IMG/VR virus record: IMGVR_UViG_2703718838_000010
DNA length: 15,448 nt
Reading direction: 5' to 3' (one strand)
Source: a virus
Taxonomy: Duplodnaviria; Heunggongvirae; Uroviricota; Caudoviricetes
Under the pieces are notes generated by a model that was not told where the DNA came from, did not search any database, and was given only the letters and a program-made list of their open reading frames with translations. Within the stretch, counting starts at the first letter, position 1. Every line of letters begins with the position of its first letter. A program made the translations under genes and the position numbers. This document shows, in pieces, positions 213 to 14,524 of the stretch.

Positions 213-797
213 TTACTCCCTGACAGGGTTCGTAGGCCACTCAATATCAGGTGCAGTTGACGTATCAACACGGTTCAGCAATACCCGATACTTTTTCCAT
301 GCTTCCAGCAACGAGATTTCTTCCTCCGTTGCAATTTCCAGATCTGCAGCATCCTGAAGCGGCGCAATATGCTCACTGGCTACCTGCATCAGGTTGTTTT
401 TTGTTTCTTCCGCCTCCCGGATCCGGAACAGTTTTTCTGCTTCCGTATCCTTCACCCAGGCTGTGCCGTTCCACTTCTGAAACTCCCCTTCCGGCGATAA
501 CCAGGTAACATTTTCCGGTAACGGACCGAGTTCAGAAATAAATAACGCGTCGCCGGAAGCCACGTCATAAACCGTTTTACCCCGATGATCTTCAACGAGA
601 TGCCACGATGACTCATCACTGTTGAAAACAGCCACGAAGCCTGCCGGAATATCTGGCGGTGCAATATCGGTACTGTTTGCTGGCAGACCTGTATGAGGCG
701 GAATATATGCATCACCTTCACCAATAAATTCATTAGTTCCGGCCAGCAGATTATAAATTTTTATGGTCCGTGGTTGTTCACTCATTCTGAATGCCAT
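213..797 (-). CDS. tfa: Tail fiber assembly protein (lambda Tfa-like, 194 aa)
   Basis: ORF track 213..797 (-). Translation [24 protein letters not shown]... matches my recollection of lambda Tfa almost throughout. ATG at 797..795 shares one nucleotide with the stf TAA stop (799..797), typical translational coupling. Stop TAA at 215..213. Confidence 0.9.
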
Positions 798-3700
798 TAT
801 GCAAGCCTCACAATATAGTTAAATGCGATGTTTTTGACGGTGTTTTCCGCGTTACCAGCTGCGTTAACGGTGATGGTGTGTCCATGTGAACCAATCGCAA
901 CGGAGTGCGTATGCGCACCAATACCTACAGTATGTGCGTGTGCACCTGCGCTTGCAGCAGTACCCGATACAGAGTGCGTATGAGCGCCTGCAGAAGAAGT
1001 GTTAACACTGTATTTAGAATAATCAGGTGATCCACTTCCCGGAGCACCTTTGGTGCCACCTGAAACAAATGTTATCGAATGGGTATGTGCACCGGCTGAA
1101 GCAGCCGTACCGCTAACACTATGGGTATGCGCCCCGGTGTTATTCGTGGATTTAGTGCCGTAATCAAACGACGATGTGGTTTTCGTCCCCAAATCCGTAC
1201 TGGATGCGCTGGCGCTGTGGGTGTGCGATTTAATGCCGTCCTGTTCCTGAGACAATACGGCCCGACCACTGGCAGGTTTGCCCTTAATCGTCCAGCCACG
1301 CATATCAGGGATCACACCTGACGGATAAGCGGCTGCAAGTTTCGGGTAAGCAGATTTGTCAAAAGTCTGCCCCTGCATCAGGGCATAACCAGACGGAACG
1401 GTATCTGATGGCCACGGGATTGGTGCACCGACTGGATAAAACTCTGCAGGAGGATGAGCTGAGGTGTAAAGCTGCGCCCACGGCGACCAGTTTGCGTCGG
1501 TCGTATCCCGTCGTGAACGAATAAATGCCGGAGCATGAGCACCGCTTGTACCACTCCAGCCGATGAGTAACTCACCTTCGCCAACGGCTGTCATCCCTTT
1601 CAGGTGAATGATATTTCCATACGCTGTTGGATATCCGTTGTTATACACCTCGTATAACTCAAGACCTGTTGCCCCCTGCGTATTGTCTGTCAGCGCGGTT
1701 ACCCGACCTTTTGAAGCCAGATTAACTGATGATACTGCTGTTCCACCTGACGGTAACGCCCCGATCTCTGATGCCGTTGGCTTATTTCTGGAGTTATAGT
1801 CCCTTCGCCAGCCAGGTGAATAATCTGTTCCGTGATTAATATAGGTAAACTGGGCGTTAGTTGTTCCACCACCAGTGGAGGTGGTCGGTGTGGTAATGCG
1901 GATCGTCATCGCTGACTTTATCCCCATTACTTCAATGACAGCTCCGGCGAGATGAATATTACCGCAGCCAGTATCAGTAATGATTTTATTATTGCCATAA
2001 GACCAGGAACCCTTGCACATCCAGTATGGATGGTTAAATGCTCCCTGAGAATCCAGCCACTCGATAAACTGTGCAGTCGTCCAGTCTCCTGTTGTTGTGC
2101 TTACTGACCCACCGAAGGCGCGGCAGGCACCAATATTTTTCGTAAAGGTGTCTTTGCCAGGGATATCCGCACCGTTCTGATCTTTCTGCAGACGTTTCTC
2201 AGCATTGTCATTGGCTGCTTTTACTGCCTTTGGCGTTGCCGCCAGCGTTTCAGACGTGCTGTTGGTCGCGCTGCTTAGCTGGATTATCCCTTTCTGTGCT
2301 GTCGTTGCATCCTGTGCGGTGTATTTCCCGTTAGCCAGGTCATACGCGGCCTTAACGGCTTTTGGCGTTGCCGCCAGTGACTCGGAAGTGCTGTTGGTCG
2401 CACTGCTGAGCTGTACTATCCCCTTTTTCGTCGTGCTCGCATCCTCAAGCGCCACGGCGGATGCAATATCCTCTGCCCGTTTTGCCGCTGTCTCAGCGCG
2501 CGTTGCTGCAGATTCCGCCGTACTTTTGCTCTGAGCTGCTGCCGTCGCACTGCCAGCTGCCTCTGTCGCCTTCGTGGATGCCGTCGTGGCGCTACCCTTC
2601 GCTGCTGACGCCTGTCTGGTCGCCTCATCTTTTGAAGCAGACGCCGATGAGGCCGATGACGACGCCGAACTGGCTGACGATGCGGCAGCCGTTTTTGAGG
2701 ATTCTGCGCTGGTTTCCGACGCTTTCGCGTTCGTTTCGGATGTCTTCGCTGCGGAAGCAGACCTCGCTGCTGCGCTGGCCTGTTCAGTGGCTTCGCCAGC
2801 CTTCGTTGTGGCTGTTGAAGCAGACGATGCGGCGCTTTCTGCCGATTTTCCGGCGGCGGTGGCACTGGCTGAGGCCTGCCCGGCACTTGTTGACGCTGCA
2901 CTGGCAGACGACGCAGCCGCTGTTTTTGAGCCTGCCGCAGCCGAGGCGCTCTGTCCCGCTGCCGTTTCAGAAGACCTGGCGTTCGTCTCTGACGTTTTTG
3001 CCGCCTTCGCGGAATTTCCTGCCGCTGTTGCCGAGGAAGCTGCGCTACTGGCGCTCGAGGATGCGTTCGTTTCTGATGATTTTGCCGCCTCTTTTGAAGC
3101 CGCCGCATCCCGGGCTGAGGTGGCAGCTTCTGACGCTTTCGTAGTCGCGGTGGATGCAGAAGTGGCTGCTGATTGTTGTGACGCTGCAGCATTCGTTTCT
3201 GACGTTTTCGCGGCACTGGCACTGGTAGCTGCCGCGCTTTTTGAGGACTCTGCAGCGGCAGCACTTTTTGATGCTTCAGTGGCCTTTGTTGATGCCGTTC
3301 CTGCGCTGGAAGTCGCTGACTGAGCCGACGACGCGGCCTGTCCGGCTGACGTGCTGGCTGCGCGTGCTGAGCCTGCAGCATCAGTCGCATGGGTTGCCGC
3401 CTCACGGGCTGATGTGCTGGCATCACTGGCTGACTTCTTCGCGGCTGCCGTGTTCTGTGCCACCACGGACGCGTTACGCGCCACCTCTTCCACCATCAGC
3501 TCAAAACGGCGCAGTGCCTCCGGACGGGCATCATCCTCCGTCATGGCACCGAGAAAATCATTCAGCGTACCGGGTCGGGAATCTTCATACACTGTGATGG
3601 TCCCGGCATGTGACGGCGGGAATCCTTCCACCAACAGAATAACGCTGTACTGACCGTACTCAACGTCCATACTGTAACGCCCGGCTTCATCCGGATTTTC

Positions 3701-3820
3701 AGATGCCAGCGTGTTCACCACCACCGTGGTACTGTTACGTTTTGCTTTCAGCTGGATTGTGCAGTTCTGTACCGGTTTTCCTGTGCCGTCTTTCAGTACA
3801 CCTGAAATTTTTACTGCCAT
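797..3820 (-). CDS. stf: Side tail fiber protein, intact long form (about 1007 aa), with Ala/Ser/Thr-rich quasi-repeats and a C-terminal His-x-His repeat domain
   Basis: ORF track 797..3826 (-) begins MNMAVKISG; the track start at 3826 is GTG, while the ATG at 3820..3818 gives [26 protein letters not shown], the lambda Stf N-terminus as I recall it, and is preceded by GGGGTGA. C-terminus has repeated GAHTHS / GAHAHT / GSHGHT motifs and ends [11 protein letters not shown]. Confidence 0.85.
2228..2421. repeat. Two imperfect direct repeats of about 63 bp (2228..2290 and 2359..2421, period about 131 bp) inside stf, encoding the repeated motif [11 protein letters not shown](S/T)[11 protein letters not shown]
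   Basis: Seen in sequence: ctttggcgttgccgccagcgtttcagacgtgctgttggtcgcgctgcttagctggattatccc versus cttttggcgttgccgccagtgactcggaagtgctgttggtcgcactgctgagctgtactatccc. Confidence 0.8.
2430..3430. repeat. Low-complexity, internally repetitive GC-rich segment of stf encoding the Ala/Ser/Thr-rich shaft ([12 protein letters not shown]-type quasi-repeats)
   Basis: Translated stf ORF shows degenerate repeats ([43 protein letters not shown]...). The same DNA yields long spurious ORFs in other frames (2416..3426 -, 2574..3323 +), a hallmark of repetitive GC-rich sequence. Boundaries approximate. Confidence 0.6.
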
Positions 3821-3828
3821 ATTCACCC

Positions 3829-3858
3829 CACAAAAAAGCCCGCCTGAACCGGCGGGCT
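3829..3858 (-). terminator. Rho-independent terminator-like hairpin downstream of lom (stem gcccgcc / ggcgggc, loop 6 nt, then T6 on the minus strand)
   Basis: Plus strand 3832..3858 is aaaaaagcccgcctgaaccggcgggct; on the minus strand this is agcccgccggttcaggcgggcttttttgtg. It lies 27 nt after the lom stop (TGA at 3887..3885) and directly before the stf RBS and ATG at 3820. Confidence 0.6.
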
Positions 3859-3884
3859 GTCATAACACTGTGTTACCTGGCTAA

Positions 3885-4484
3885 TCAGAATTTATAACCA
3901 ACACCCACGATGAACCCGTCAGTGCGCCAGTCACCACTGCCGGAGCCTTCATAAGCGACATCAATGGCCACGGATTCGGTCGGGTTAAACTGCACGCCAG
4001 CTCCCCACGCCAGAGACGTGTTGCTGTGGCGACCGTCATCACTTCCGGTCAGCACATCGTGCTTTTTCCCCTTGTTGTCAGTTACGCGGAGATAATCCCC
4101 GGAGAAAGTCGACACACGGCTGTAAGCCACACCCGCCATCGCATACGCGCTGAACCATTCATTCACGCGCACAGACGGCCCCGCCATTACGCTGAACCAG
4201 CGGTTACGAACGGAATCTTCATGCCAGCGGGTATCGCTGTAACGGGTAATCTGGCGATTCTTGTCTCCTGCATAGCTGAACGACGTCACCATCCCCAGTG
4301 TGTCCGTAAACTCATAACGGTATTTCACGTTAATCCCGTTCAGATCATCACTGCCGGGAACGTTCGTCCGGGCATGAAGATACCCCGCGCTCAGCGTGGA
4401 CTGATGTTCAGACGCCCATGCAGGCGCACCGGATACGGCCAGACAAATGGCTGCGGACAAAATGGCGGCATAAAGTTTACGCAT
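3885..4484 (-). CDS. lom: Outer membrane protein Lom (Ail/Lom/PagC-family beta-barrel; lysogenic-conversion moron)
   Basis: ORF track 3885..4484 (-), 199 aa. N-terminal signal peptide [24 protein letters not shown] and C-terminal ...[10 protein letters not shown] ending in Phe, typical of outer-membrane beta-barrels; matches lambda Lom as recalled. RBS GAGAGG 5 nt upstream of ATG (4484..4482). Confidence 0.9.
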
Positions 4485-4550: not shown

Positions 4551-7952
<3,402 letters not shown>

Positions 7953-8009: not shown

Positions 8010-8681
8010 TCAGCGACCAATCACCACAACCTGACCACCGTCCCCTTCGTCTGCCGTGCTGATCTCCTGAGAAACCACCCGCGACCCCACACGCATTTCA
8101 CCGTACAGAACAGGCAAAACATTGCCCTGAGCAACCATGTTATCCAGTGAGGAGAAATAGGTGTTCTGTTTGCCGTTATCCGTTGTCTGTGTACGGGGAG
8201 TTCTGGCTTTCGGTGCCAGCATCTGCGCCACACCACCGAGCACCATACTGGCACCGAGAGAAAACAGGATGCCGGTCATACCACCGGCCCCAATGGCTGC
8301 CCCCCATGCTGCAAGGGTGGCTCCGGCAGTAAAGAATGATCCGGCAATGGCGGCAGCTCCCAGGACAATCTGGAATACGCCACCTGACTTGGCCCCGGCG
8401 ACTCTGGGAACAATATGAATCACAGCACCATCAGGCAGAGTCTCATGTAACTGCGCCGTTAACCCGGACGAGCTGACGTCCCGCCCGGCAATCCGTACCT
8501 GATACCAGCCGCCGCACAGTTTCTGACGAAACGCCGGGAGCTGTGTGGCCAGTGCCCGGATGGCTTCAGCCCCCGTTTTCACACGAAGGTCGATGCGGCG
8601 GCCAAATCGTTGTAAATCCCCGTAAAGGCAGATGCGCGCCATGCCCGGTGACGCCAGAGGGAGTGTGTGCGTCGCTGCCAT
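8010..8681 (-). CDS. I: Tail tip assembly protein I (223 aa)
   Basis: ORF track 8010..8681 (-). MAATHTLPLASPGMARICLYGDLQRFGRRIDLRVKTGAEAIRALATQL... matches lambda gpI as recalled. C-terminal half is a Gly/Ala-rich hydrophobic segment. Its 5' end overlaps the 3' end of K by 103 nt in another frame. Confidence 0.9.
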   Translation of the reverse strand: MAATHTLPLASPGMARICLYGDLQRFGRRIDLRVKTGAEAIRALATQLPAFRQKLCGGWYQVRIAGRDVSSSGLTAQLHETLPDGAVIHIVPRVAGAKSGGVFQIVLGAAAIAGSFFTAGATLAAWGAAIGAGGMTGILFSLGASMVLGGVAQMLAPKARTPRTQTTDNGKQNTYFSSLDNMVAQGNVLPVLYGEMRVGSRVVSQEISTADEGDGGQVVVIGR

Positions 8682-9322
8682 TTGTCGGTATACCTCTCTC
8701 GTTTGCTCAGTTGTTCAGGAATATGGTGCAGCAGCTCGCCGTCGCCGCAGTAAATTGCGGCGTGATTCGGCACCGATGAACCAAAACAGCACAGCAGCAC
8801 ATCGCCAGGCTGCGCCTCTGTCAGTACGACACGGTAAAAACCCGTTGCCTCCAGATTATCCAGATAGAGATTCTGACCGTGACGCCACCAGTCATCCCCG
8901 CGATGAAAATCCGGCATCTCAATTCCCGCCAGATGGTAAGCGTCCCGGAACAGCGTGTAACAGTCCGTCACCCCGTGCTCAAAGCGCCGCCCGGTGAGAT
9001 GCGGCACACAGCGGAACTTATGAATCGCCCCCCGGCAGACCAGCAACCACGGCAAATCACTCTGCACCTGCAGCCGCCGGTCAGCCTCACTCAGCCAGGG
9101 CAGACCACCGGGGTGGCTGTGGACCAGCGCCACAATCTCACCCTGCATTTCTGCCTGCAGCCAGTCCTCCGGCGACATCCGGAAATACGCCTCCGGCCTA
9201 CCGGAGATATTCACGCCGGGAAAATATCTTTCCCCCTCCGGCGTTCTCACCACGAAGCCGCACGACTCCGCTGGCGCACATCGCCGGGCGTGCGCCAGAA
9301 TCGCTGATTCTGTCTCTGTCAT
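8579..9322 (-). CDS. K: Tail tip assembly protein K, long form (247 aa) with N-terminal MPN/JAMM-like domain and C-terminal NlpC/P60-like domain; the classical 199-aa form would start at 9178
   Basis: ORF track frame 8579..9364 (-). ATG at 9322..9320 (MTETESAILAHARRC...) lies 4 nt after the L stop (TAA 9329..9327). The classical start MSPEDWLQAEMQ is the ATG at 9178..9176. A JAMM-like motif HSH-x7-S-x2-D (VHSHPGGLPWLSEAD) is visible, and a Cys/His pair typical of NlpC/P60 (GVTDCYTLF ... NHAAIYCGDGELLHH) lies in the C-terminal half. Confidence 0.8.
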   Translation of the reverse strand: MTETESAILAHARRCAPAESCGFVVRTPEGERYFPGVNISGRPEAYFRMSPEDWLQAEMQGEIVALVHSHPGGLPWLSEADRRLQVQSDLPWLLVCRGAIHKFRCVPHLTGRRFEHGVTDCYTLFRDAYHLAGIEMPDFHRGDDWWRHGQNLYLDNLEATGFYRVVLTEAQPGDVLLCCFGSSVPNHAAIYCGDGELLHHIPEQLSKRERYTDKWQRRTHSLWRHRAWRASAFTGIYNDLAAASTFV

Positions 9323-9326
9323 GGGT

Positions 9327-10025
9327 TTACTGCGAAAGTTTGTTAATGGAAAGGAAGCCGCCAAAGTTGCCGACGTTATTGCGAAACTTACAGCCGCTCA
9401 GGCATTTGCTGCATTTATCCTTCGTGATATCGGACGTTGGCTGGTCATATTCATCCGCGACCGCCGGACCGTGATAACCGCACTCATCACCGCGATAGGT
9501 CCAGGTGCAGGTATTAGCAAGCATGATGCGCCCCGGAAAAACAGCGCCGTCCGTTTCCGTCGGCGTGGACAGTACAAAGGAGGCACTGACCGCGCTCAGT
9601 TCGCTGCACTGCTCAATACGCCAGCGGCTGATCACCTCCTGCTCCGGATCGGCGTCACTGTTTCCGTTGACGAAGTTCACCGCATCCAGAAAACGGGCGT
9701 AAACCTTACGCCTGACCACCGTTCCGCCGACCAGACTCTGCAGGTCTTCCGCCATCCCGGTGACCATGCCGTGCAGATTAGAGACTTTCAGCGTTGGCCT
9801 TGCACTGGCACCTTTGCCGTTCATCTCAAATCCACTCCCCTGAATGGGATAGGCCTGATACTGCCGACTCTGCCAGGTGACAGACTCTCCTTTCTCGTTC
9901 TGCTCATTGCAGAAAAAGTAGCGATCCCCGCCTACCTCGGTCAGGTCGATTTCCCAGAGCACCACGCTGGCCGACTGCTCCGCACGAATGCATTCATTCA
10001 GCGTTTCCTGTTGTATGTCCTGCAT
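9327..10025 (-). CDS. L: Tail tip assembly protein L (232 aa), with a C-terminal Cys cluster
   Basis: ORF track 9327..10025 (-). [33 protein letters not shown]... closely matches lambda gpL as recalled. C-terminal cysteines (CTWTYRGDEC ... KDKCSKCLSGCKF) fit the iron-sulfur-binding gpL family. ATG of L shares a nucleotide with the M stop (ATGA overlap at 10025). Confidence 0.9.
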   Translation of the reverse strand: MQDIQQETLNECIRAEQSASVVLWEIDLTEVGGDRYFFCNEQNEKGESVTWQSRQYQAYPIQGSGFEMNGKGASARPTLKVSNLHGMVTGMAEDLQSLVGGTVVRRKVYARFLDAVNFVNGNSDADPEQEVISRWRIEQCSELSAVSASFVLSTPTETDGAVFPGRIMLANTCTWTYRGDECGYHGPAVADEYDQPTSDITKDKCSKCLSGCKFRNNVGNFGGFLSINKLSQ

Positions 10026-10363
10026 CAGATCACCACTTCGTCAAACTGACACGAAAAATCGGTATAGGTGATATGTTCTGTCGCTGACCACGTTCGACAC
10101 ACCACTCTGATTTTTCTGTTAATACCCGGCGGGCGCCAAAAAAAAGATTTATAGCCTTCATGCCGGGCTAAAAATTTTTCAAATGAATCACGTTCATTCG
10201 CCTCAACTTTGAAATCACAGGTGAAAACGCGCAGAGAATGATTAAGTCCATTTGGACTTCGTTGCTCATAACCATCATCAAATCTTACAGTTTTTATCGA
10301 TGGTTTATTTTCTGTTTTCATTCCATCCTCTGGTAACCAGTGAAATTCTTCCGTATTAGCCAC
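10025..10363 (-). CDS. M: Minor tail protein M homolog (diverged from lambda gpM); start uncertain between GTG at 10363 (112 aa) and ATG at 10321 (98 aa)
   Basis: ORF track 10025..10363 (-). Position between tape measure and L, and conserved core [10 protein letters not shown] / KSFFWRPPG recalling lambda M (VRFGDGYSQR / KSFLWTPP). The GTG start overlaps the tape-measure stop by 8 nt; ATG at 10321 has GAGG 5 nt upstream. Confidence 0.75.
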
Positions 10364-13300
10364 TTAACATTCCCCCATCACGTCGCATATTTAACAGATT
10401 GCCCTGCACCCGCTGATCAACCATCCCCATAAGTGCTTTTATTGCCTGAGGGCCAATCTCTCCATTCTGGCCGTCATTTTGAATAGTGATTTGGTATACA
10501 GGGGCATAGGTAATATCTCCGCCTCCATTACCACTTTTACTATTAATAGCTCTGACACCAAGAGAACCATCGGAAGTTCGTGTTAATGGCATAATGGCTT
10601 CCGGTCCAGCCTCACCAAAAACACCAGCCCCTTTTGCAAAAGCAAAAAATTGCGGGGAATCATAAATACCGTTCGAATACGTGCTCAATGACGGAGACTC
10701 ATAAACACCGCCCTTTGCATTCGGAATAAATTTACTAATAGCACTCCCGATAGTTCCTAAAATCCCCCCAGAAGAACTGTTACTAATGCTGTCGATAATC
10801 CCAGTAATTGAAGCCTTTAATGCTATTCGACTAAGATCCGAAATCACGGAAGTAGCGAAAGAACGAAAATTTGCCTTGCCTGTCGTGACAAAATCACCCA
10901 GCGCATCGGTCATCCCATCAAACATCTGAGTCGTGGTTGATTTTATCTGCTCACTGATATCCTTAGTGTCATCCAGCCAGTTATTGAATCCCTGGGAGGC
11001 ACCACTAACCCAGTCTCCTGCCTGAATATCGAGCTGCTCGTTTTTCTGTCTGACAATTTCTTTTTCCCGTTCCAGAGCATCATTCAGAGCCTGCATTTTC
11101 TCTTGAAAAACATGATCTGACATTCCACGGGATTTATCTGCATAGTCACGTTCAAGTTGCAGACGCTGATTGTTATATCCATGTTCAATCCGCAGTAATT
11201 CCTGCTGGCGTTGCTGATTTTTATCGCCAACCCCATAACCAGCAATCTGAATATCATACCCCTGCTGACGATTATCAATCGAAGCCTGCAATGAATCACG
11301 CCATGCTGTTATTTCGGCGGATTCCTTGATTAGCCTGTTATTTTTTTCAATCGCAACATTTTTCTCCATCAACGTGGTTATTTCTTCCCGGTGTAAGAGA
11401 AGCGATTTCTGATCCTGGGTTAATTTCGATGATGGTCGTGACTCTAGGTCGGCAATCCGCTGACGCCACTTAACCAGTTCCTGTTCAGAGGAACTTAATT
11501 TAACGGTCAACTCAGCTTGTGAACTTAGTAACGCATTCTGTTGATTCAGATGATCAATCATTCGTTGGGCTGCATCATCAGAATAACCTTTCGCCTTTGG
11601 TTGCTTTGGATCTTTATAACGCTCATTTATTTGAGCGATAAGATTATTATATTCTTCCTTTGAATACTGATTCTTTAGCTTTTCCAGTTTTGCAAGTTCA
11701 CTAGCTCTCTGCTGCTCCCGGGTCTGATATTGTTTTGAAAAGGCATCTGCTCTCTGTCTGAGTTCAATTCCTTCCTGTTGTCGCTTGTTGTAATCGTTTA
11801 TTGATGAATTTAGTACGTCCTGAGCAATTTTTTCTGCTTGAAGTACGCCCAATTGCTGCTTTAATCGTGCCAGCCTTTTATTTTGAGCTCCGCCATCTCC
11901 AATGCCACCTAACCCGAAAACTCCGGGTCGGGTATTTTTTTCTATTTCATCAATTTGACGGAGAACATCTGAGATTTTTTGATCAAGGGAGGCCTCACGG
12001 CCAATATCCAGCATGGAATCCCATGCCCATTTTGCGGAGTCTGCGACAGCTTTCCATGCAGTCTCAAGATAACCAAGATTTTCTTTAATCTGGTTGGTGC
12101 GCTGGATCATTGAGGATGAGTATTCTTCTGTCGCAATGCGGGCGGCCTCCTGCTGGTTCCCTTCATCCTGTAGCGCCTTAATCTGGTTATAAGTCGCAAG
12201 TGTCAGAAAATGGTACTGATCATTAAGTTTTGATATGGCACTGACAGGATCCTTTGCAATTTCATTGAAGTCATTAACCAGTTGTTCGGTTGATATTCCT
12301 GTTACTTCGCTCGTTTTTACTATCGCTGTCGTCACTTGCTCCAGCGAACTGCTCGCTACCTTTCCCGAACGCACAAGCTGATTTAATACTGCCGCCGCAG
12401 CACCAGTTGTCGAATCAGCCGCATTCCCGGCACGTTGAGCTATATCGCCCAATTGCCCGCTGGTTGTCCCCAACTGATTTCCGGTAAGAATAAGAGATTT
12501 ATTAAATTCGTCCTGCTCCTGAGAGCCTTTATAGTAAGCCAGTCCTAAGACCCCAACGGCTGCTGCGGCCAGGGTAAAAGGATTAATTAATCCCAGCACA
12601 TAAGAACCTACACCTTTGATCGCCGGGCCAATCCCACCGAACATATCTTTTAGCTGGCCGCCCTGCTGCATTAACACCATAAATGGCGACTGACCAGTGG
12701 ACAACCCAACAACAATATCCGTCATTTGTGCAGGCAACATGCGCATAGCAAAAGCCGTTTGTTTTGCCGACATTCCGGTTTTGCTTAATTGTGATTGAGT
12801 AACCTCAAGCTCACTCCGCATAGCACGAAGTTTTCCAGAAAGCTCCTCATACATTTCAGGAGAAAGCATCCCCTTAGCTTTTGCTTCATTGAGCTGTTTC
12901 TGTTGTTCTACCAGACGATTAAAAGCAGTTCCGACAGGATCAAGTTGAGCAATCAGACGTTGCAAAGCAACAACCTGTTCATCATGCGCTTTTGCTGCTT
13001 CTCGCTCTGCCTGAGCCTCTCCGGTAAGCTCTCGCCGTGTTTCCTGTATTTTTCGGCTATAATTCTCAAACTGAGAACCATTTATTTTCCCGGATGCAAA
13101 CGCAGCATTAAGTTCATCATGCTGTTGTTCAAGATTTCTTAGCGCCGCAGCCAGAGGGTCGATCTTGTCCAGCATTCTTTGAAAGGCCTGAGCCTGCGCT
13201 TCCTGCTGGGCGGCAGCAAGTTTTCCGGCCTTCTCGGCTTCTCTCTGCGCTTGCGCAACCCCGCTCAATTCCTCTGTGGTTTCATTAAGTTTACGGACAA

Positions 13301-13589
13301 GAAATTCATATTCTTCTTTATCAATAAGCCCTTTATCGAAAAATTTCTTTAATTCAGAATAGCGTCGACCGACAGTATCAATTGCGGCACCAACTGGATC
13401 AATAGCTGCTTTTAATTTTGCGAGCGCGTTCTTCTCATCTTCTGTTGCCTTAGTCACTTTCCCTGCGCTATTTGCAGCAGTTTCCCCAGCCTGCGTCATT
13501 TTGACTAATGAGGAGGTCAGATTGTCAGCATTATTTTTCGCTCCAGTGCTATCAATAATTATTGCGAGACGCGAGGTTTGCTCTGCCAT
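10356..13589 (-). CDS. Tail tape measure protein (1077 aa; functional equivalent of lambda gpH but a different, more AT-rich lineage)
   Basis: ORF track 10356..13589 (-). Largest gene, between the chaperone pair and M. N-terminal about 55-aa tandem coiled-coil-like repeats (…[20 protein letters not shown]…, …[20 protein letters not shown]…, …[20 protein letters not shown]…) and a hydrophobic Gly-rich central segment ([19 protein letters not shown]...[14 protein letters not shown]). ATG 13589..13587 preceded by AGGAG. Confidence 0.85.
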
Positions 13590-14071: not shown

Positions 14072-14524
14072 TTTTATCGTATCCTGCTTCTGCTGCTCTT
14101 TACCCTGGGCGATGCTGGCTGCTTCTGCAAGGATCTGCCAGTACAACTCTGGATTCTGCTTAAGCAGCGCGATCCCTCGTTCTGCCGTATATTCCAGTGC
14201 AACCTCAACACCATTAACCAGTTCACCAACCCCTTTCCAGTCTTTCAGCAGATAACGAGCGGCATTATCAATGAGTAAATCATCAACAGAATCCACCTCG
14301 GAAACCTTTGAAATATCAAACTCCTTCGTTCCGACGTGCAAACTGGCATCCATTTTCTCAATGTGGCGACGGATTAATGCATTACGGGAGCGATACTGAT
14401 CGTTATCGCTGCTTGCCACCAACAGTTTTAACCCGTCTACAGGTTTTAAGTCCTTCATTGGCGTAAACCAGCGTTCTCCACCAATGATAATTTTCTGATT
14501 AAGAATAAACATCCATAACCTCAT
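14063..14524 (-). CDS. Tail assembly chaperone (gpG analog, about 150 aa); start either ATG 14524 or ATG 14512
   Basis: ORF track 14063..14524 (-). Sits between the major tail protein and the tape measure gene, ends ...KEQQKQDTIKKP-stop (TAG 14065..14063), and carries an A_AAA_AAG slippery heptamer 2 codons before its stop. No similarity to lambda G itself; the call is by synteny plus the frameshift architecture. Confidence 0.7.
   Translation of the reverse strand: MRLWMFILNQKIIIGGERWFTPMKDLKPVDGLKLLVASSDNDQYRSRNALIRRHIEKMDASLHVGTKEFDISKVSEVDSVDDLLIDNAARYLLKDWKGVGELVNGVEVALEYTAERGIALLKQNPELYWQILAEAASIAQGKEQQKQDTIKKP
14069..14075 (-). promoter_or_regulatory. Programmed -1 ribosomal frameshift slippery heptamer A_AAA_AAG (minus strand) joining the G-like frame to the downstream T-like frame
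   Basis: Minus strand reads ...GAT ACG ATA AAA AAG CCA TAG in the G frame. A -1 slip on A AAA AAG enters a frame that I translated by hand as open from 14099 to the stop at 13755 (…KKAIAAQRWLSEFGGERGEKARWKREKLRLPPIPEPEIDP…). The same heptamer is the classical E. coli dnaX slip site. Confidence 0.7.

Follow-up and report, generated by a model that had tools for sequence, protein, structure and literature searches.

Gene K lies on the minus strand between genes L and I in the tail-tip operon of a lambdoid prophage from E. coli, in a 15,448-nucleotide stretch of DNA that was analysed as a whole and is called the window here. The order of the genes, H-M-L-K-I-J, matches that of lambda, with L, I and J assigned from Pfam matches and annotation. 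The window is nevertheless not lambda itself but a lambdoid prophage whose H protein has 1077 residues. The K frame runs from ATG 9322-9320 to TGA 8581-8579, and gene I overlaps its end by 103 nt. Our check of the coordinates agreed with the earlier reading that this frame is open to an ATG placed 4 nt past the L stop, and that the Met of the 'classical' MSPEDW start (ATG 9178-9176) is codon 49 of the 247-codon frame. The features of the locus are collected in Table 1.

Table 1. Features of gene K and its surroundings in the window
Feature	Position	Strand	Evidence
Gene K, full-length CDS, 247 codons plus TGA	8579..9322	-	ORF and translation
L stop TAA (9327-9329) and 4-nt spacer ACCC (9323-9326)	9323..9329	-	sequence
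N-terminal 48 codons, absent from the classical 199-residue gpK	9179..9322	-	conservation, AF2 model, dN/dS
GGAGG (9190-9194) and ATG (9176-9178), 'classical' K start, codon 49	9176..9194	-	anti-SD energy
G absent from the lambda reference	9188	-	junction alignment
Predicted JAMM/MPN (Prok-JAB) domain, residues about 1-105	9008..9322	-	Pfam PF14464, residues 4-98, 49.9 bits
E19 codon, predicted JAMM catalytic Glu, P-x-E-x-C-G motif	9266..9268	-	conservation, alignment
Predicted JAMM metal-binding motif H68-S69-H70-x7-S78-x2-D81	9080..9121	-	conservation
Predicted NlpC/P60 (C40) papain-like peptidase domain, residues 111-224	8651..8992	-	Pfam PF00877, 47.6 bits
C121 codon, putative triad	8960-8962	-	at least 90% conserved
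H187 codon, putative triad	8762-8764	-	at least 90% conserved; alignment to 8idc_E
H199 codon, putative triad	8726-8728	-	at least 90% conserved; alignment to 8idc_E
Gene I	8010..8681	-	Pfam Lambda_tail_I PF06805, 98.6 bits

A K coding sequence with the same 744-nt extent was called by PGAP in an E. coli copy of 99.5% identity (WP_061360072.1), the exact 247-residue protein was found in NCBI and UniRef on 84 contigs, and it matches PHROG 30 with an E value of 6e-159. Its ortholog is lambda gpK (TIPK_LAMBD / AAA96551, annotated at 199 residues), and identity to K of resequenced lambda is about 94% over 247 residues, with C36G and E42R among the substitutions between window and lambda K. The lambda reference entry is 48 residues shorter than the window protein, and the L-K spacer is 4 nt in the window compared with 5 nt in lambda. 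Upstream of ATG 9322 there is no Shine-Dalgarno sequence (anti-SD duplex of +0.7 kcal/mol over 24 nt), and K is therefore presumably initiated by coupling to the end of L translation. For the internal ATG 9178 the anti-SD energy is -9.5 kcal/mol at a spacing of 11 nt.

The N-terminal part of the protein contains the motif H68-S-H70-x7-S78-x2-D81 (VHSHPGGLPWLSEAD) that had been proposed to mark a JAMM domain. H68, H70 and D81 do not vary among 88 homologues, and at least 90% of these keep S69 and S78. A further claim, that the candidate upstream glutamates lie only in the 48-codon extension, held in part. E52, E58 and E62 are located between M49 and H68 and contradict it as worded, whereas the residue equivalent to the JAMM catalytic glutamate, E19, is confined to the extension. 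E19 is Glu in 87 of 88 distant homologues, and it aligns with the E-x-C-G motif found in the JAMM structures 2kks, 2kcq and 5lda. A profile of the K family matched JAMM domains in the PDB with E values of 1.8e-14 to 7.7e-12. The stand-alone JAMM proteins, PfJAMM1 (5ld9/5lda, with SAMP2), AfJAMM (1r5x/1oi0), 2kks and 2kcq, have the E...H-S-H-x7-S-x2-D motif and the fold in common with K, with profile E values down to 1.8e-14 over K residues 2-107 at an identity of about 25%. Unlike these proteins, K carries a second, fused peptidase domain and is encoded within a virus assembly operon, and its substrate is putative.

The AF2 model of the 247-residue protein reached a pLDDT of 97.3 and a pTM of 0.91 when built on the 88-sequence alignment; a single-sequence run gave a pLDDT of 32.9. 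Foldseek comparison of the N-terminal domain of the predicted model returned PfJAMM1 (5ld9_A, TMt 0.65), and also AMSH, AMSH-LP, CSN5 and Rpn11. With the extension, the Prok-JAB profile PF14464 was matched at 49.9 bits over profile positions 4-103 of 114, well beyond what chance would give. Without it, the 199-residue form gave 22.8 bits over positions 63-103 only, which is under the 25-bit cut-off and bears out the earlier suggestion that the short form would carry a truncated JAMM domain. Taken together, motif, profile and model indicate that residues 1-105 form a complete JAMM/MPN domain, a predicted zinc metallopeptidase with H68, H70 and D81 as the predicted metal ligands.

Several observations argue that the 48-codon extension is coding. 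In the AF2 model it supplies the JAMM/MPN fold with its first helix (residues 3-15) and two strands (21-27 and 30-36). Across the 88 homologues G22 and N38 do not vary, conservation of P17, E19, C21 and F47 is 90% or more, and six of the most conserved alignment columns fall within the extension. The dN/dS of the extension was 0.08-0.16 in diverged pairs, similar to the rest of the gene; these values are usable only for the diverged PPompW comparisons, as the close pairs (window with lambda, phage 21 and ev099) have 0-3 synonymous changes in the 47-codon extension and are uninformative, and the value for Stx2a_F349 is inflated by a rearranged N-terminal junction. A tblastn search with the 247-residue form returned 1750 phage records, 1719 of them covering at least 80% of the query, and in 59 of the 60 records listed the alignment begins between query residues 1 and 8, also where identity is as low as 28-50%. 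Distant K homologues of six phages (Mannheimia, mEp013, phiE125, HK544, T1-like Shfl1 and Pseudomonas D14Q) are annotated at 236-260 residues and start at most 20 nt from the end of L or overlap it. The long start proposed in the earlier note was thus upheld, with family-wide conservation, domain completeness, predicted structure and synteny all favouring ATG 9322.

The C-terminal half had been described as carrying a Cys/His pair typical of NlpC/P60 peptidases. C121, H187 and H199 are present, and the NlpC/P60 profile PF00877 was covered over its full 105 positions at 47.6 bits, relative to a cut-off of 23, so that both Prok-JAB and NlpC/P60 were above cut-off in the Pfam check of the 247-residue translation. 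H187 and H199 align with the H-A-G-I-Y and V-H positions of the M. tuberculosis NlpC/P60 endopeptidase 8idc_E; the assignment of C121 is based on conservation and on its place at the start of helix 121-131, not on a residue-level alignment. The predicted model's C-terminal domain was matched by Foldseek to MepS (7v6t, TMt 0.71), and the matches to MepS (7v6t, 7v6s, 8xud), Spr (2k1g) and Acd33800 (9ubf) span TMt values of 0.58-0.71 and rmsd values of 2.4-3.9 Å. Further PDB matches are CwlO, LytE and RipC-like proteins. K shares the fold and the positions of the Cys-His-His triad with enzymes of the NlpC/P60 family (MEROPS C40) such as E. coli MepS/Spr, from which it differs in sequence (identity of 17-20%) and in being cytoplasmic, with no signal peptide annotated. 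Residues 111-224 are therefore predicted to be an NlpC/P60 papain-like cysteine peptidase domain. Collectively, we put the probability at about 0.88 that gene K encodes a 247-residue two-domain peptidase translated from ATG 9322, a figure that concerns the identity and start of the protein (not its substrates) and derives from sequence comparison and structural modelling.

The origin of the shorter form was traced to the lambda reference. There the extension is not in frame with classical K, as one G is absent between positions 14266 and 14267 of the reference (J02459/NC_001416). In NC_001416 the upstream ORF begins at ATG 14133 and K at ATG 14276, which are 143 nt apart, and the upstream ORF is thus out of frame with K. 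At this junction GGAGGCGTATTTCC is read in five lambda-derived genomes from separate records (PV340536, OM418626, KT232076, DE3 EU078592 and LC730321) and GGAGGCTATTTCC in the reference. A variant table for the MutaMouse lambda-gt10 transgene lists 14266 C>CG (PMC6760142). Without this G the first 48 codons lose the K frame, and the internal Met after the GGAGG is left as the only apparent start. The 199-residue start would accordingly exist because of one base absent from the lambda reference sequence of 1982, and this comparison of junctions identifies the 'classical' gpK as an annotation artefact of that reference. The missing G may also be a real polymorphism of the stock sequenced in 1982; the reference-type junction is shared by OR474059 (marked UNVERIFIED) and OR974322 (which has reference-identical coordinates), two records presumed to be derived from the lambda reference. 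Programmed frameshifting in lambda K was considered and rejected, since the resequenced lambda genomes simply contain the extra G. Literature searches turned up no paper stating that the annotated start of lambda K is incorrect, nor one that ties the 14266 insertion to K.

Other accounts of the start were weighed against the long form. The view that the 199-residue protein alone is real, with the upstream 144 nt an untranslated spacer open by chance, has behind it the legacy lambda annotation (J02459, NC_001416 and UniProt TIPK_LAMBD) and the strong internal Shine-Dalgarno sequence. We give it almost no credence, because the extension is conserved as protein down to 28% identity, holds invariant residues and the predicted catalytic Glu, is under purifying selection and is needed for a complete, confidently modelled JAMM domain, and because the missing reference base accounts for the legacy start. 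Production of both proteins, with the short one made from ATG 9178 as an NlpC/P60-only isoform, is unlikely but deserves greater weight. The GGAGG located 11 nt before this ATG, at -9.5 kcal/mol, equals or exceeds the sites of H, I and J in strength, and gene callers often pick this start, with 199-residue clusters of 1684-4936 members each. However, only 13 of 88 homologues have Met at position 49 (56 have Ile), PPompW has the GGAGG with ATC at codon 49, and Stx2a_F349 has the ATG with the GGAGG lost, a pattern which argues that the pair is not under joint selection. The GGAGG also arises as a by-product of P-E-A codons, and in a protein made from M49 the MPN fold would be missing its first helix and two strands, with about 57 residues of an incomplete domain remaining. 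A dual K was likened to the nested lambda products S105/S107 and C/Nu3. A start at TTG 9364, upstream of ATG 9322 and within the end of L, would yield a 261-residue protein; the frame is open back to this codon, and 67 of 87 aligned homologues have 1-16 residues N-terminal to the M1 position. This start is very improbable, given that it has no Shine-Dalgarno sequence (-1.7 kcal/mol), that its extra 14 residues would sit inside the conserved C-terminus of L, and that ATG 9322, the first ATG, follows the L stop where a coupled start is usually found, an arrangement also seen in lambda, phage 21 and the PGAP calls.

A different question is whether the NlpC/P60 domain is a cell-wall hydrolase that digests peptidoglycan at infection rather than an assembly protease. 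The closest solved folds are peptidoglycan endopeptidases (MepS/Spr, CwlO, LytE and RipC-like proteins). Gene transfer agents have related NlpC/P60 tail proteins that are described as virion-associated peptidases, which also counts for a hydrolase. In addition, the peptidoglycan-cutting enzyme of lambda was called unidentified by Ge and Wang in 2024 (PMC11101478). Against this, mass spectrometry of lambda virions did not detect gpK (PMC10721106), three cryo-EM studies did not resolve it, and its absence from virions makes a peptidoglycan substrate doubtful. The fusion to a JAMM domain and the pairing with a ubiquitin-like protein point to protein processing, and we regard the hydrolase role as having a small chance of being correct.

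The earlier note had placed the two peptidase domains beside a ubiquitin-like gpI, and this arrangement is real: gpI matches Lambda_tail_I, and the pairing has already been published (PMC1779556). The ubiquitin-like beta-grasp domain of gpI covers approximately residues 14-97 and terminates in ...AGAKSGG (G100-G101), and alignment with distant I homologues gave a conserved G-S/A-K-S-G-G that closes the domain at G100-G101. Past the Gly-Gly, a hydrophobic linker leads to a C-terminal plug domain. In the virion, gpI was resolved by cryo-EM only from residue 101 in one study (PMC11101478) and only from 134/135 onward in other work (PMC12617516), although absence of the N-terminal domain from the maps may be simple flexibility. 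A virion mass spectrometry table contains a single gpI peptide, with its position not given, and is thus no guide to the presence of the ubiquitin-like domain in virions. gpK is reported to be necessary for lambda tail assembly yet absent from the virion (PMC10721106). In the proposed mechanism translation of K would be coupled to termination at the L stop, which lies 4 nt upstream, and gpK would then act catalytically in tail-tip assembly and not be retained in the virion. The likeliest reaction is the one put forward by Iyer et al. in 2006, in which the JAMM domain would cut the neighbouring gpI right after the Gly-Gly that ends the ubiquitin-like domain, so that the membrane-active C-terminal portion of gpI would remain as the tail-tip plug. 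Cleavage after G100-G101 by the JAMM domain is a tentative proposal that we judge somewhat less probable than an even chance. A two-substrate tail-tip maturation protease, in which the JAMM domain removes the gpI ubiquitin-like domain at G100-G101, is rather unlikely as a whole; the JAMM half of this reading is the 2006 hypothesis and the second half is speculation. Counter-defence by the JAB domain against bacterial ubiquitin-like conjugation systems was also considered and was rejected, as there was no evidence for it in this analysis. K is necessary for assembly also in hosts that have no such conjugation systems.

Much of this picture has precedent. Lambda K was placed among the JAMM proteins by Ambroggio et al. 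in 2004 (PMC300881), and the pairing of JAB and ubiquitin-like domains, together with the predicted cleavage of gpI (TAPI) by the JAB domain, was described by Iyer, Burroughs and Aravind in 2006 (PMC1779556). The arrangement in the window is an exact match to their phage system, JAB plus NlpC/P60 beside a ThiS/MoaD-like ubiquitin-like domain with a C-terminal Gly and followed by J, and the window K is a member of their set with no differences. No test of TAPI cleavage by JAB was reported in the accessible literature after the 2006 prediction. The JAB and NlpC/P60 architecture and its pairing with a ubiquitin-like gpI were published in 2003-2006, and the 247-residue form is already annotated by the NCBI PGAP pipeline. 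The observation on K is thus correct but already known, and biologically nothing is new, as the architecture and pairing are about twenty years old and current pipelines call the 247-residue gene.

The practical value of the finding is in curation. The reference records J02459, NC_001416 and UniProt TIPK_LAMBD still give gpK without its first 48 residues, which include the predicted catalytic Glu, and Goulet et al. (2020), using the 199-residue form, described a peptidase domain only, at residues 52-182. Expression or mutation of gpK to test ubiquitin-like processing in phage assembly would call for the 247-residue construct.

Several independent lines, from sequence comparison and structure modelling, indicate that the 48 codons upstream of the classical gpK start (the extension) are translated as part of K. 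On the minus strand, the L stop codon (TAA 9329-9327) is followed by ACCC and then by ATG 9322, and the frame is open from this ATG, 4 nt past the stop, with the MSPEDW methionine of the classical 199-aa protein (ATG 9178) in frame at codon 49, as the earlier note had read it.

Tail genes of the prophage, in window coordinates
Gene	Positions	Strand	Description
H (tape-measure ORF)	10356-13589	minus	ORF, 1077 aa
M	10025-10363	minus	ORF
L	9327-10025	minus	ORF; stop TAA 9329-9327
K	8579-9322	minus	ORF, 247 codons then TGA 8581-8579
I	8010-8681	minus	ORF, 223 aa from ATG 8681
J	4551-7949	minus	ORF

These genes belong to a lambda-like prophage distinct from lambda itself, since H encodes 1077 aa here compared with 853 aa in lambda and the best full-length matches to the whole window are E. 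coli chromosomes (~98% identity). In the K region the window shares 99.5% identity with a prophage of E. coli strain E1 and 94-95% with lambda, 21, and 434. A longer tape-measure protein usually gives a longer tail, and by this ruler rule the H length predicts a tail longer than that of lambda. Three ORFs lie 3' of J on the same strand within 213-4484, of 199 aa (3885-4484), 1009 aa (797-3826), and 194 aa (213-797), and 'prophage tail fiber N-terminal domain-containing protein' is among the RefSeq feature names of the E. coli regions that best match the whole window. Plus-strand ORFs facing K and L at 8632-8997 (121 aa), 8879-9307 (142 aa), and 9321-10049 (242 aa) look like by-products of coding-strand composition; no sign that these antisense ORFs are genes was found.

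The earlier note had held that the first domain is truncated without the extension and had proposed a Pfam search of the 247-aa translation. This search matched both expected domains. The 247-aa form scored 49.9 bits against Prok-JAB (PF14464), covering profile positions 4-103 of 114 and exceeding the 25-bit cut-off, while the 199-aa form fell under it with 22.8 bits at positions 63-103 only; NLPC_P60 (PF00877) gave about 48 bits with either form. A tblastn search of 50,697 phage records with the 247-aa K matched 1750, of which 1719 reached at least 80% query coverage. Of the 60 records listed, 59 had alignments beginning at query residues 1-8, even at 28-50% identity, and the listed records included T1-like phages and phages of Klebsiella, Burkholderia, Ralstonia, Mannheimia, Moraxella, Pseudomonas, and Rhizobium. 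All six distant phages that were fetched have a K homologue annotated at 236-260 aa, starting within 20 nt of the L end or overlapping L. A search of 1.84 billion representative proteins returned 2697 matches, and the full-length ones (35-59% identity) pair their own first residues with K residues 1-12. In an alignment of 88 full-length K-type proteins from this search, the extension contributes six of the columns that are most conserved over the full length of K: P17, E19, C21, and F47 reach 90% conservation or more (E19 is Glu in 87 of 88), and G22 and N38 are invariant. Comparisons with the diverged E. coli phage PPompW gave a dN/dS of 0.08-0.16 for the extension, matching the rest of the gene. 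Codons 36 (9215-9217) and 42 (9197-9199) of the window K encode Gly and Arg, whereas Cys and Glu stand at these positions in lambda, 21, and ev099; 59% of the 88 homologues have Cys in column 36.

The AlphaFold2 model of K built with the 88-sequence alignment (pLDDT 97.3, pTM 0.91) places a helix at residues 3-15 and strands at 21-27 and 30-36, and because these elements lie in the extension the model makes it integral to the first domain. The K family profile matched the solved JAMM domains 2kks, 2kcq, and P. furiosus JAMM1 (5lda, 5ld9) from profile position 2 or 3, with the E-x-C-G motif aligned in each. Foldseek matched the model to PfJAMM1 (TMt 0.65), AMSH, AMSH-LP, CSN5, and Rpn11 in the JAMM/MPN class and to MepS (TMt up to 0.71) in the NlpC/P60 class. 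The H-x-H-x7-S-x2-D pattern was found as proposed, in H68-S-H70-PGGLPWL-S78-EA-D81. The further claim that candidate Glu residues are confined to the extension held in part: E52, E58, and E62 come after M49, but the homologous catalytic Glu, E19, does sit in the extension. The assignment of the C-terminal half to NlpC/P60 was borne out by family-profile matches to MepS/Spr, CwlO, and LytE, and in alignment with an M. tuberculosis NlpC/P60 enzyme H187 and H199 fall on its catalytic His positions. Both domains were thus recovered as members of their families, and it is well supported that the JAMM site and the NlpC/P60 triad are both complete, conserved family-wide, and encoded beside a Ubl gene. 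In every testable respect the window K belongs to the gpK/TAPK family.

The lambda reference differs at precisely this point. In NC_001416 an ORF encoding MTQTESAILAHARRCAPAESCGFVV... begins at ATG 14133, 5 nt past the L stop, and is out of frame with K because 143 nt separate this ATG from the K start downstream at 14276. The junction reads GGAGGCTATTTCC in the reference versus GGAGGCGTATTTCC in the window; one G at lambda 14266/14267, matching window G 9188, is missing. This G is present in all lambdoid relatives examined and in the five lambda-derived genomes read (PV340536, OM418626, KT232076, EU078592, and LC730321), in which it gives a 744-nt K. The exact reference-type junction occurs in only four records of the phage collection: J02459, NC_001416, an engineered strain marked UNVERIFIED, and another whose coordinates are identical to those of the reference. 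At least 22 others, among them the five that were read and including lambda, lambda hybrids, DE3, HK629, and HK630, align 293 bases to 292 of the reference. The identical insertion has reportedly also come from resequencing of commercial lambda DNA. The MutaMouse lambda-gt10 transgene paper reports this difference as 14266 C>CG, together with a one-base deletion near the left end, 137 AG>A (PMC6760142), which would compensate the insertion and explain why corrected genomes are nearly equal in length with downstream coordinates unchanged. The simplest reading is that one base was probably omitted from the 1982 sequence inside a G/C-rich run. A mutation private to the stock sequenced in 1982 is less likely, as it would leave an essential gene minus a conserved catalytic domain. 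The missing base explains why a 'classical' K start exists.

A minor internal product from ATG 9178 is a possible addition to the 247-aa protein. GGAGG stands 11 nt before this ATG (-9.5 kcal/mol), which is why people and programs pick it, but three observations speak against a selected start: PPompW keeps GGAGG with ATC at codon 49, Stx2a_F349 keeps the ATG and has lost GGAGG, and most distant homologues carry Ile or Leu at this position (in the 88-protein alignment, Ile in 56 and Met in 13). Initiation of the long form is likely coupled to L, since ATG 9322 lacks a Shine-Dalgarno sequence (+0.7 kcal/mol) and lies so close to the L stop. The start of I is also inconsistently annotated, by PGAP as 573 nt from GTG 8582 (a 4-nt overlap with the K stop) versus the classical ATG 8681, which has a good Shine-Dalgarno (-9.3 kcal/mol) and gives a K/I overlap of 8579-8681. 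The GTG start would cost the gpI Ubl domain its first strands, because Lambda_tail_I covers residues 14-97 of the long gpI and distant homologues align from residue 14 on; these alignments make ATG 8681 or ATG 8642 (M14) the probable true start.

Current annotation routinely uses the long gene model. K is called as 744 nt by PGAP in E. coli, in phage 21, and in one lambda record, and at least 1000 contigs carry the exact 247-aa lambda K, under the names 'C40 family peptidase' or 'metal-dependent protease of the PAD1/JAB1 superfamily'. It is still 600 nt in NC_001416, DE3, and lambda imm434 and 636 nt in KT232076; 199-aa calls form large clusters, the 199-aa gpK is AAA96551 (UniProt TIPK_LAMBD), and Goulet et al. 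2020 worked with that form and saw a single peptidase domain. The architecture and Ubl pairing were published by Ambroggio 2004 (PMC300881) and Iyer 2006 (PMC1779556), the latter crediting the two peptidase domains to Anantharaman and Aravind 2003. With these publications and the routine gene model, the earlier note's long K, carrying JAMM and NlpC/P60 domains beside the Ubl protein gpI, is correct and already known.

K is required for lambda tail assembly, and gpK was not detected in virions (PMC10721106). Iyer et al. predicted that the JAB domain cuts gpI at the C-terminal Gly of the Ubl domain and so sets the latter free (PMC1779556), and in our alignment the Ubl domain terminates in a conserved ...GSKSGG (G100-G101, window 8379-8384), a Gly-Gly end like that of ubiquitin. 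One cryo-EM study of the closed tail tip resolved gpI from residue 101 on (PMC11101478), others from 134/135 only (including PMC12617516), and the N-terminal domain has never been seen in a map. This is consistent with cleavage after the Ubl domain, although a merely flexible N-terminal domain would explain it equally well. We put the probability that the gpK JAMM domain cleaves gpI at about 35-40%. A peptidoglycan role for the NlpC/P60 domain is less likely given the absence of gpK from virions, and gpK may, speculatively, be a candidate for cutting gpH to gpH*, as that enzyme is not known (PMC12617516). What the analysis adds is the explanation of the truncated lambda reference entry and a reminder that, in the papers reached, Ubl processing in tail assembly is still a predicted step.
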